From an uncultured Sutterellaceae bacterium (GTDB taxonomy: Bacteria; Pseudomonadota; Gammaproteobacteria; Burkholderiales; Burkholderiaceae_F): 64,000 nucleotides of DNA. The stretch lies in NCBI GenBank assembly GCA_902797695.1, contig CADBTW010000095.1, positions 66 to 64,065 of the forward strand, in the 5' to 3' direction. The position numbers and the translations under genes are program-made. Position 1 is the stretch's first letter, and every line of letters begins with the position of its first letter. Under the pieces are notes generated by a model that saw nothing but the letters and a program-made list of their open reading frames with translations, did not search any database and was not told where the DNA came from. Below are positions 44,462-46,702 of the stretch, piece after piece.

Positions 44462-46702
44462 ATGTTTCAATTGGCTAAGCGACAAGAAAACACTGAAGAA
44501 TTGACTGCTGCCGAAGGGCCTGCCGCCGGAAAGACCGCCGCCAAGGCGGCCCCGGCGAAGAAAGCCCCGGCCCGCCGCAAGGCCGCGCCGAAGAAGGCCT
44601 CAGAAGCCCCGGCCCGCAGCAAGCCTGCCGCGAAGAAGGCCGCGGCGAAGCCGAAGGCCGCACCGAAGCCAAAGGCGGCATCGAAGACAAAGGCCGCGCC
44701 GAAGCCCAAGGCTGCTGCGAAGCCGAAGAAGGCGGCCGCAGGGGCTTCTTCCGAAGCCGAGGAGTTCGATGACGGCTCCGTACTTGATGCCGACAGCCTG
44801 ATCGCCGAGTCTGATCAGGACCTTGAGGACGACGAGGAGAACGAGTTTGAGGAAGCCGAGAAGAGCGCTTCCCAGGCCAGTTCCGGCCTTGCCTCGTCCG
44901 AGGAGTTCACGCAGTGCTACAAGGCCCTCGTCAAGCTCGGCCGCCAGCGCGGCTGGATTTCGGTCGAGGACATCAATGACCTGCTGCCTGAGAGCGCGGA
45001 CTCGAACGAGGAGCTGGTTTCCGACATTTCCGAGCAGATCGCGATCCTTGGCATCCAGGTGTTCGACCAGGCGCCGGACAGCGACGACATCATCCTCGCC
45101 TCCGTCACGAACGACAGCCGCGACGACATCGACGAGGACGACGCGGCAGAGATGCTCTCCCCGGAGGAGAGCGCCGGCCTTTCCCGCGATCCCCTCCGGG
45201 CGTACCTGCGCGGGGTCGGAACCCACAAGCTCCTCACGCGCGAGGAGGAGATCGAAGTCGCGAAGCAGATCGAGTCCTACACCCAGAAGCTCGTCTCGGT
45301 GCTCGCCGGCTTCCCCTTCGTGATGGACAAGCTCCTCGAGGTCCGCAGGCAGCTCGAGGAAGGCGAGGTGACGATTGACAACGTCGCCGACGGCTTCAAC
45401 GAGGCCGAGGGCGAAGCGGTGTCCGTCGAAGAGGGCCAGGGCGGGGGCGACATCGGCGCCGCCGGCATGAGCACGGACCAGCTCGAGGCGATGAAGAGCC
45501 GCGTGATCTCGATCATCAGCGAGTGCGAGGGGCACTACGCCCTCGTGAAGCAGTATTTCCCCGATCCGGAGCAGCACACGGCATACAACCGCGAAAGGCG
45601 CTCCGTCGTGAAGAAGCTCTCCGTGATCCGCTTCTCCGGCAAGATCGTCTCCATGCTTTCCGACCTCGTCACCGAGCACATGTCCCAGGTGAACAAGCAG
45701 CTGTCGCGCATGCGCCGCACGGCCGTGGACGACTGCGGGATTCCGGTCGAGAAGTTCCTGAAGGAGTTCGAGCAGCGGGCGACCGATCCCGAGTGGTTCC
45801 CGTCGATCGCCGCGGAAGGCGCCGCGTACTCCGCGCGCGTCCAGCGCCAGATCCCGGTCCTGCAGTCGATGCAGGAGGAGCTACGGGCCGAGGAGCGCGA
45901 GTCGAGCATCACGATCGCCGAGCAGCGCGAGCTCGCGAAGTCCGTGAAGATCGCGCAGAACAACCTTTCCGCCGCGAAGAGCAAGATGATCGAGGCGAAC
46001 CTGCGGCTCGTGATCTCGATCGCGAAGTCCTACGTGAACCGCGGCCTCGCGATGACCGACCTCATCCAGGAAGGAAACCTCGGCCTCATGAAGGCGGTCG
46101 ACAAGTTCGAATACCGCCGCGGCTACAAGTTCTCTACCTACGCGACCTGGTGGGTGAAGCAGTCGGTCACCCGGGCGGTGGCGGACTACGGCGCGACGAT
46201 TCGCGTCCCGGTCCACATGACCGAGTCCTACAACAAGCTTCGCCGCATCAAGCAGCGCTACCTCCAGACGCACGACGGGAAGGCGCCGACCGACTCCGAG
46301 CTCGCGAAGCTTGGCGACATGCCGCTCTCGAAGGTGCACCTCCTCATGAACGCGATGCGCGGCGTCGAGTCGATCGACGCCCCGATCGGGGACGACGACG
46401 ACGCGACGAAGCTCGACTTCGTGAGGGGGAGCGATGACGCGGACCCGCAGCGCCGCTACATGGAGACCGCGATGAGCGACGAGATCATCCGCTCGCTCGA
46501 CGACCTCACGGCGCGCGAGGCCTCCGTGATCCGCCTTCGCTACGGGATCGGCTCGAACCGCGACCACACGCTCGAGGAGGTCGGCAAGGCGCTCGGCCTC
46601 ACCCGCGAACGTGTCCGCCAGATCGAGTCCGCCGCGCTCCGCAAGCTCCGCAGCAACGCCGCCAAGGCAAGGCTGAAGGACTACAAGGATTTCGACGAGT
46701 AG
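44462..46702 (+). CDS. second full-length RpoD-like (group 1/2) sigma factor with Lys/Ala/Pro-rich N-terminal tail
   Basis: Region 1.1 ([25 protein letters not shown]), region 1.2, a long non-conserved region, region 2 ([27 protein letters not shown]) and region 4.2 ([28 protein letters not shown]). About 80 aa of AKKA/KPKAA repeats lie in frame at the N-terminus. ATG 44384 is an alternative start. Confidence 0.9.
   Translation: [746 protein letters not shown]

Follow-up and report, generated by a model that had tools for sequence, protein, structure and literature searches.

The DNA examined here, referred to as the window, is a 64,000-nucleotide stretch of contig CADBTW010000095.1 from an uncultured Sutterellaceae bacterium. 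Directly downstream of its canonical rpoD gene ("gene 1"), the window carries a second, paralogous gene for a full-length RpoD-type sigma factor (positions 44462 to 46702, forward strand). With a probability of roughly 70%, we read this paralogue as a functional second group-1-type ("alternative primary") sigma factor, which would have arisen as an in-place duplicate of rpoD and would serve sigma-70 promoters with altered kinetics or regulation. The observation itself had been made in a first-pass annotation of the window, and we confirm it as a whole. The peptides quoted there from regions 1.1, 2.4/3.0, and 4.2 were found as written, while some of the interpretations placed on them had to be revised.

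Results

The window carries two full-length RpoD-type sigma factor genes in tandem

The reading frame of the paralogue is open from 44384 to a stop codon at 46700-46702, and the ATG at 44462 yields a protein of 746 amino acids (aa). We take this ATG as the start because homologues share the first peptide (examples are protein P0002, where it reads MFQLATLQDKTEE, and protein P0005) and because the position aligns, at the DNA level, with an ATG in Mesosutterella multiformis and a GTG in M. porci. The gap between the two genes measures 248 bp (44213 to 44462), in agreement with the 250 bp or so given at first pass. The rpoD gene itself starts at ATG 42006, as a 735-aa database protein is 100% identical to its product. 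This RpoD is about 65% identical to other Burkholderiales RpoD proteins, and the closest database proteins to the two sigma factors of the window are named Mesosutterella (Sutterellaceae, Burkholderiales). Two isolate genomes, those of M. multiformis 4NBBH2 and of M. porci, have the same dnaG-rpoD-paralogue tandem. Thus, the paralogue is a functional gene, and the tandem is not an artefact of assembly.

Searching the Pfam models, we find PF03979, PF00140, PF04546, PF04542, PF04539, and PF04545 above their gathering thresholds in the paralogue, as in the RpoD of the window. Every RpoD module is therefore present, as had been claimed from the letters alone, and the domain order (1.1, 1.2, non-conserved region, 2, 3, 4) is that of proteobacterial RpoD (sigma-70). 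The best matches among solved structures are the full-length RpoD proteins of Pseudomonas and E. coli. The protein was also rightly judged not to be an RpoS- or RpoH-sized alternative sigma. It is of the full-length RpoD type, with region 1.1 and the non-conserved region, and it scores only 257 bits on the RpoS model TIGR02394, against a cut-off of 378.7.

Promoter-contacting residues are retained and their surroundings are rewritten

We mapped the residues of 20 paralogues to the E. coli sigma-70 numbering, with residue roles taken from the established sigma-70 structure-function literature. Invariant in all 20 were the core-binding residues (D403, Q406, E407, N409, M413), the melting and -10 residues (K414, K418, Y425, Y430, W433, W434), the -12 contacts (Q437, T440, R441), the extended -10 contacts (R451, H455, E458), and the -35 contacts (R584, E585, R586, R588, Q589). 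By the same mapping, gene 1 of the window retains every canonical residue. At about 40 positions that do not vary in canonical proteins between E. coli and Burkholderiales, the paralogues carry replacements throughout the clade. Such changes include Q446Y, A447G, and R448N/A at the end of region 2.4 and S517A, H518T, L519K/R, and G520L in the region 3.2 finger; those in regions 1.2, 2.2 (Q400A, F401M, L402T), 3.0 (I457T, T459S, I460Y), and 4.2 are listed in Table 1. Regions 2.4-3.2 (108 aa) are nearly invariant across the clade, with two signatures, one opening with WWV[RK]Q[SA] and the other closing with LDFV.

Since every base-contacting and melting residue is retained, reading of sigma-70-type promoters is expected. 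The paralogue would bind core RNA polymerase and read -35, extended -10, and -10 elements of the sigma-70 type. A similar -35 readout had been proposed at first pass, and the region 4.2 residues that read this element are indeed retained. An altered readout of the -10 bases had been proposed as well; this is unlikely, given the invariance of Q437, T440, R441, H455, E458, and the melting aromatics. The changes lie instead in neighbouring residues, in region 1.2, in the 3.2 finger, and in the activator patch of region 4.2. Region 1.2 contacts the discriminator, the 3.2 finger touches the template strand in initial synthesis and acts in promoter escape, and the region 4.2 patch is used by class II activators and anti-sigma factors. 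A holoenzyme with the paralogue would probably have promoters in common with that of RpoD and differ from it in open-complex kinetics and in its response to regulators. Judged by residue conservation, then, holoenzyme formation, sigma-70-like promoter specificity, and altered kinetics are all probable properties of the paralogue.

The paralogues form a compact family under purifying selection

Homologues of the paralogue fall into more than 100 clusters at 51-79% identity. Among them are named proteins of M. multiformis, M. porci, Parasutterella secunda, Ca. Aphodousia, Sutterella sp., and Duodenibacillus sp. Scanning contigs with an alignment specific for the paralogue (108 aa), we count at least 11 paralogue loci; the short pattern STYATWWV also matches other sigma factors. 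A profile search of 1.84 billion cluster representatives returned one full-length paralogue cluster at 1079 bits. The next full-length matches, from 583 bits down, carry canonical RpoD motifs, and between these scores there are only fragments of the paralogue family. This drop from 1079 to 583 bits shows a compact and isolated family. In neighbour-joining trees, the paralogue clade is monophyletic with a bootstrap of 100.

Comparing Mesosutterella species, we obtained ratios of non-synonymous to synonymous substitution rates (dN/dS) of 0.06-0.24 for the paralogue core and 0.05-0.19 for the core of canonical rpoD. The paralogue core is under purifying selection.

Gene order points to duplication in place

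At the locus level, five arrangements are seen downstream of rpsU-yqeY-dnaG. In Turicimonas muris, dnaG is followed by a canonical rpoD (828 aa) and a tRNA(CAT) gene, without an adjacent paralogue. The Mesosutterella loci (the window, L014, and L015) have rpoD, the paralogue, and then tRNA(CAT). Loci L018, L020, and L022 have rpoD and the paralogue, with the tRNA(CAT) gene then seen in L018. In Parasutterella and Ca. Aphodousia, the paralogue comes after a gene 1 that has diverged strongly and has about 45% identity to canonical RpoD. In Sutterella (L003, L007, L021) and a Duodenibacillus-type locus (L094), the paralogue alone follows dnaG, at a distance of 817-819 bp in L021 and L094. A search of the stretch from dnaG to the paralogue in L003, L007, and L021 found no remnant of gene 1. 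Synteny in related genomes, a check suggested at first pass, proved stable across five genera. Compared with a canonical reference, gene 1 is 70% identical in Turicimonas and about 66% in Mesosutterella; the value drops to about 58-61% in the L018/L020/L022 group and to about 45% in Parasutterella.

The motif DIGA(S/A)xMTxxQL is common to the paralogue and canonical Burkholderiales RpoD, and E. coli RpoD is without it. From this motif, from the AT-hook-like remnants in some paralogue tails (see below), and from the gene order with respect to tRNA(CAT), we infer that the paralogue most likely arose when a Burkholderiales-type rpoD was duplicated at its own locus, the new copy lying before the tRNA(CAT) gene that follows rpoD. 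The duplication would have occurred in an ancestor of most Sutterellaceae and would have been followed by a burst of divergence and then by strong constraint.

In Parasutterella secunda and Ca. Aphodousia, gene 1 (L001:5485-7539, L017:5892-7946, L016:5863-7869) keeps the canonical motifs of regions 2.4, 3.0, 3.2, and 4.2 and has lost R99 and M102 of region 1.2. As gene 1 is divergent too, both group-1 sigmas at the locus are atypical in these bacteria.

The basic N-terminal tail is a labile feature shared with canonical Burkholderiales RpoD

The N-terminus of the paralogue carries a Lys/Ala/Pro-rich basic tail of 79 residues (aa 15-93), in which 21 K, 3 R, 33 A, and 12 P are counted (K/A/P = 84%). 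By composition, an acidic linker and then the acidic region 1.1 follow. AlphaFold2 models residues 1-127 without secondary structure, at a predicted local distance difference test score (pLDDT) below 50. After TTG 44501, there is no in-frame ATG, GTG, or TTG until well inside region 1.1, so the tail must be translated. The first-pass description of an obligatorily translated basic tail of about 80 aa is accurate in this respect.

The tail evolves fast. Protein P0001, 98% identical to the paralogue of the window, has 12 tail residues fewer, which corresponds to exactly two 18-nt repeat units. Between Mesosutterella species, the dN/dS of tails is 0.16-0.58, as against 0.06-0.24 for the paralogue core. 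Across the family, N-termini range from absent or acidic to basic tails of about 300 aa. The 654-660-aa paralogues (L018, L020, L022) have a purely acidic N-terminus, the 681-aa Sutterella forms are almost tail-less, and the 844-985-aa forms have long basic tails. In L018, L020, and L022, it is the canonical copies (921-1097 aa; L018:4879-7830, L020:667-3960, L022:5258-8023) that carry a very long basic tail, next to the paralogues with an acidic start (L018:8582-10564, L020:4716-6680, L022:8588-10555). This is the reverse of the window, as if one tail per pair suffices.

A basic tail before region 1.1 had been regarded as unusual at first pass. On the contrary, 142 of 228 canonical Burkholderiales RpoD matches have a 40-aa N-terminal window with a net charge of at least +8, and the median N-terminal extension over E. 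coli among the 228 is 136 aa. Named canonical RpoD proteins with such tails include those of Ramlibacter, Acidovorax, Trinickia, and Turicimonas; that of Ramlibacter tataouinensis starts MPASKSAKLAKPPAKPGAKKPVKPASPPAKAALKVVK. Since the arrangement of basic tail, acidic linker, and region 1.1 occurs on canonical Burkholderiales RpoDs and on many, though not all, paralogues, it is labile and does not define a class. In this view, the tail, disordered and fast-evolving, is a repeat-encoded form of the basic extension that many Burkholderiales RpoD proteins carry. It probably gives non-specific affinity for DNA or the nucleoid, or modulates the acidic linker and region 1.1.

The extensions of canonical Burkholderiales RpoD often contain an AT-hook-like motif, typically RGRPGRKPK, which we find in 102 of 174 distinct extensions and in the rest of canonical RpoD in 1 of 198 cases. 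Among paralogue tails, 12 of 79 hold AT-hook-like remnants (KRPGRPKKA, KPGRKPGRK). Examples of the motif occur in P0134-P0160 and other proteins and in T. muris (L011:10001-10700). A strict copy is absent from both sigma factors of the window, the homologous place in rpoD being about 42315-42350. The extension of canonical Mesosutterella RpoD (about 42060-42190 in the window, aa 20-60) contains a short motif twice, which is recognisable in M. multiformis and M. porci. Literature searches returned no paper describing AT-hook motifs in RpoD and none on basic RpoD extensions in Betaproteobacteria.

A basic, disordered N-terminus of a primary sigma factor has already been studied in Mycobacterium tuberculosis SigA (Singha et al. 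2023, PMC10011835). The extension of SigA, which structures do not show, matters for function, and phosphorylation regulates it (PMC10011835). The paralogue resembles SigA in having a long disordered extension before the conserved sigma core. Unlike in SigA, the tail in the window belongs to another phylum and another sequence, and the two are not homologous.

The spacer between the two genes is structured

The 248-nt spacer folds markedly better than shuffled sequence (z-score -3.0), and the M. multiformis counterpart (L014:7886-8158) reaches -5.1. Performing a terminator scan, we found two weak 5-bp hairpins with T-runs (44290-44305 and 44315-44329), a number not above the shuffle expectation; the second is aligned in position with a hairpin and T-run in M. 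multiformis. The earlier statement that no obvious terminator lies between the genes has to be qualified accordingly. A scan of the region between rpoD and the paralogue showed no sigma-70 consensus promoter. Conserved DNA blocks in the spacer include TTGTCAATCAGG and CTTAGnTTAnGCT, neither of which could be equated with a promoter element; the 45 nt around the start codon are conserved as well. The spacer may be a regulatory leader or a terminator. Partial termination after rpoD, together with a separate promoter for the paralogue, is possible, and read-through from rpoD into the paralogue is equally possible.

Features of the locus

The neighbours of the paralogue in the window are dnaG, rpoD, a tRNA gene, a DEAD-box helicase gene, and gltX. 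The coordinates of the features are given in Table 1.

Table 1. Features of the rpoD-paralogue locus (window coordinates; residue changes in E. coli sigma-70 numbering; MFE, minimum free energy)
Feature	Positions	Strand	Evidence and remarks
dnaG (primase), upstream member of the conserved rpsU-yqeY-dnaG-rpoD order	39792..41636	+	open reading frame and translation; tblastn synteny, 15 related loci
Canonical rpoD (gene 1), 735 aa	42006..44213	+	NCBIfam RpoD equivalog
rpoD-paralogue intergenic region, strongly structured as RNA, blocks conserved in M. multiformis	44214..44461	+	MFE -114 kcal/mol, z-score -3.0
Weak hairpin and T-run (TCGGAAGGGATCCGA ATTTTCT), candidate leaky rpoD terminator	44315..44336	+	terminator scan; not established
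Paralogous full-length RpoD-type sigma gene, 746 aa and stop codon	44462..46702	+	open reading frame, Pfam, NCBIfam, alignments
Lys/Ala/Pro basic tail, aa 15-93, net charge +22	44504..44740	+	composition; predicted disordered
Tandem DNA repeats coding for the tail	44562..44728	+	Tandem Repeats Finder: 42-nt unit, 1.9 copies; 18-nt unit, 5.2 copies
Acidic linker, aa 94-150, net charge -20	44741..44911	+	composition, AlphaFold2
Region 1.1, aa 151-229	44912..45148	+	Pfam PF03979, E = 2e-11; modelled folded, pLDDT ~80-88
Region 1.2, aa 243-271	45188..45274	+	Pfam; clade-invariant V98L, M100A, M102L, E104G, M105V
Non-conserved region, aa 284-476	45311..45889	+	Pfam PF04546; motif DIGA(S/A)xMTxxQL
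Region 2, aa 509-575	45986..46186	+	-10 recognition and melting residues retained; Q400A, F401M, L402T clade-invariant
Region 3, aa 589-663	46226..46450	+	H455, E458 retained; I457T, T459S, I460Y; 3.2 finger tip SHLG -> AT(K/R)L
Region 4, aa 679-730	46496..46651	+	R584, E585, R586, R588, Q589 retained; D581G, K593A, H600S, R603A/F
tRNA, CAT anticodon, synteny marker	46788..46864	+	same kind directly after rpoD in Turicimonas muris

The tRNA(CAT) gene downstream of the rpoD region was located at L011:12725-12801, L013:12664-12740, L014:10649-10725, L015:10652-10728, and L018:10787-10863. In E. coli, a tRNA(CAU) gene, ileX, lies just beyond rpoD, on the far side of mug (L005:5599-5674). The tRNA(CAT) of the locus may be tRNA-Ile2 rather than tRNA-Met. 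Directly after the Turicimonas-like 972-aa RpoD P0282, there is a P4-type integrase gene (L010:3529-4329), which suggests that the tRNA downstream of rpoD is an integration site in the P0282 lineage.

Discussion

Comparison with known sigma factors

Extra "alternative primary" sigma factors have already been described in Burkholderiales (PMC2194791). SigI and SigJ of Burkholderia and the extra rpoD of B. xenovorans have all RpoD domains, and their function is unknown (Menard et al. 2007, PMC2194791). Like them, the Sutterellaceae paralogue coexists with rpoD, as seen from the tandem in the window and in L014, L015, L018, L020, and L022.

We also noticed extra full-length RpoD proteins of 616-680 aa with region 1.1 in Paraburkholderia (phymatum, diazotrophica, piptadeniae, monticola), Cupriavidus spp., and Caballeronia; their loci are L025, L026, L029, L032, L064, L080, L087, and L088, each with its match some 8.5-10.6 kb in. 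Like the paralogue, the proteins from Paraburkholderia and Cupriavidus have both region 1.1 and the non-conserved region. Unlike the paralogue, the extra copies of the three genera do not lie beside dnaG and rpoD. Their identity is 52-55% to canonical RpoD and no more than 35-38% to the paralogue, and they keep the canonical motifs of regions 2.4 and 3.0, whereas the paralogue clade has its own invariant signature. In the trees, which covered the extra copies of these three genera, they group with canonical RpoD and not with the Sutterellaceae clade. The paralogue clade appears to be a separate, undescribed lineage of a known kind of extra sigma factor. Literature searches for sigma factors of Sutterellaceae and for Sutterella with rpoD returned nothing relevant.

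With proteobacterial RpoD, the paralogue shares the DNA-contact and core-binding residues and the chromosomal neighbourhood, and in some genera it occupies the slot directly after dnaG. It departs from proteobacterial RpoD in the clade-wide replacement of otherwise invariant positions, in narrowly missing the equivalog cut-off, and in an identity of only 36-39% to the RpoD of its own genome. As a non-identical duplicate of the primary sigma, it also resembles the group 2 sigmas (RpoS, cyanobacterial SigB-E, Streptomyces HrdA/C/D, M. tuberculosis SigB), which recognise promoters like those of the primary sigma and share part of its regulon. The paralogue keeps region 1.1 and the long non-conserved region, both of which are generally absent from group 2 sigmas. 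In M. tuberculosis, SigB and SigA have similar promoters and partly overlapping regulons (PMC10011835).

Weighing the possible roles of the paralogue

A few results weigh against the reading of the paralogue as a working in-place duplicate of rpoD. On the RpoD equivalog NF004208 of NCBIfam, it scores 540.5 bits, just below the cut-off of 555, which the RpoD of the window passes with 859.6 bits. This narrow miss explains the annotation "sigma-70 family" in Mesosutterella; homologues elsewhere are named RpoD. AlphaFold2 confidence is low in regions 2.2-2.4, probably because the alignment was shallow (31 sequences). In the neighbour-joining trees, the paralogue clade lies outside E. coli and canonical Burkholderiales RpoD together (bootstrap 98). 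Taken literally, this position would speak for an older or foreign origin. Long-branch attraction is the probable cause; the stem of the paralogue clade is a long branch, and the gene 1 proteins of Parasutterella, which have long branches too, also fall outside E. coli in these trees.

A foreign origin would suit the idea that a horizontally acquired or defence-associated sigma factor, of the anti-phage MzaA type or from a mobile element, landed beside rpoD. Besides the tree position, the paralogue does match MzaA models (335 bits in NCBIfam, 201 bits in PADLOC). Yet 335 bits is far below the cut-off of 800 (NF041931) and canonical RpoD scores higher on the same model (445 bits), while the PADLOC match covers only the C-terminal sigma regions (aa 503-739). 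No defence or mobile gene is among the neighbours, the chromosomal synteny noted above holds in five genera, and the paralogue shares its non-conserved-region motif and tail features with Burkholderiales RpoD. On score, partial coverage, and the lack of defence genes nearby, we rejected an MzaA or defence-system identity, and the wider idea of a mobile sigma is the least probable of those considered here.

Hardly more probable is the proposal, made at first pass, that a histone-H1-like tail before the acidic region 1.1 marks a new sigma class. The tail would then be the functional innovation and might, for example, tether the holoenzyme to the nucleoid. In favour of this, the tail does exist, carries a strong positive charge, and must be translated, and it has a weak compositional resemblance to chlamydial HC2. 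The family members, however, run from acidic N-termini (L018, L020, L022) and nearly tail-less 681-aa Sutterella forms to tails of about 300 aa, and comparable or longer K/A/P/T tails sit on the canonical RpoD of many Burkholderiales. Moreover, tail dN/dS (0.33-0.55) exceeds core dN/dS (0.06-0.24), and the repeat copy number differs between 98%-identical proteins. As the sole HC2 match (PF07382) is sub-threshold (E = 0.083; 13.4 bits against a cut-off of 40), we also rejected the tail as a histone H1-like or HC2-type nucleoid protein.

A more serious alternative, though still an unlikely one, is that the paralogue is the true housekeeping sigma of the lineage and that gene 1 of Mesosutterella is being relegated to an accessory role, in a turnover of an essential gene by its duplicate. 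According to the tree, the paralogue is the one sigma factor common to all four sub-lineages. With the paralogue present, the identity of gene 1 to canonical RpoD falls step by step (from 70% in Turicimonas down to about 45% in Parasutterella), and the Sutterella and Duodenibacillus-type loci have the paralogue after dnaG without gene 1 or a remnant of it. In Mesosutterella, however, selection on gene 1 is as strong (core dN/dS 0.05-0.19), and gene 1 of the window retains all canonical residues and its high equivalog score of 859.6 bits. We therefore keep to the reading of a second group-1-type sigma beside RpoD: Mesosutterella keeps both genes, and canonical RpoD is probably still its main sigma.

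The situation may differ between genera. In Sutterella and Duodenibacillus, where the locus has no gene 1, the role of main sigma may have passed to the paralogue. Takeover of the housekeeping role in these two genera, and perhaps in Parasutterella, is favoured by the locus-level evidence. A search for an abundant, gut-derived canonical cluster attributable to Sutterella found none among the best 120 matches to the RpoD of the window and to Parasutterella gene 1. Extending this to the whole family, we consider tentatively, at somewhat under even odds, that the Sutterellaceae record the stepwise replacement of an essential housekeeping sigma by its own tandem duplicate. Turicimonas would represent the ancestral stage, with canonical rpoD followed by tRNA(CAT). 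Mesosutterella and the L018/L020/L022 group would represent a second stage, with both copies under selection, and Parasutterella and Ca. Aphodousia a third, with a fast-evolving gene 1. In Sutterella and Duodenibacillus, gene 1 would be gone and the divergent copy after dnaG would be the only RpoD.

Significance

Extra full-length primary-like sigma factors are known in Burkholderiales and are not known to have been characterised functionally. The Sutterellaceae offer a natural experiment, in which sister gut genera have the duplicate beside an intact RpoD, beside a decaying one, or apparently on its own. The basic, often AT-hook-like extension of Burkholderiales RpoD is in turn a widespread trait. 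In practice, annotation pipelines name the divergent copy "RpoD" or "sigma-70 family" depending on the genus, so two paralogues are mixed up in the orthology tables and rpoD-based markers of the Sutterellaceae.

The invariant changes of the paralogue sit where open-complex lifetime, initial transcription, and activator contact are set. A comparison of the two holoenzymes would therefore reveal the extent to which a housekeeping sigma tolerates rewiring while promoter recognition stays constant. If the replacement is true, a primary sigma factor with about 40 otherwise-invariant positions substituted drives the entire housekeeping transcriptome of bacteria that are common in the human gut.

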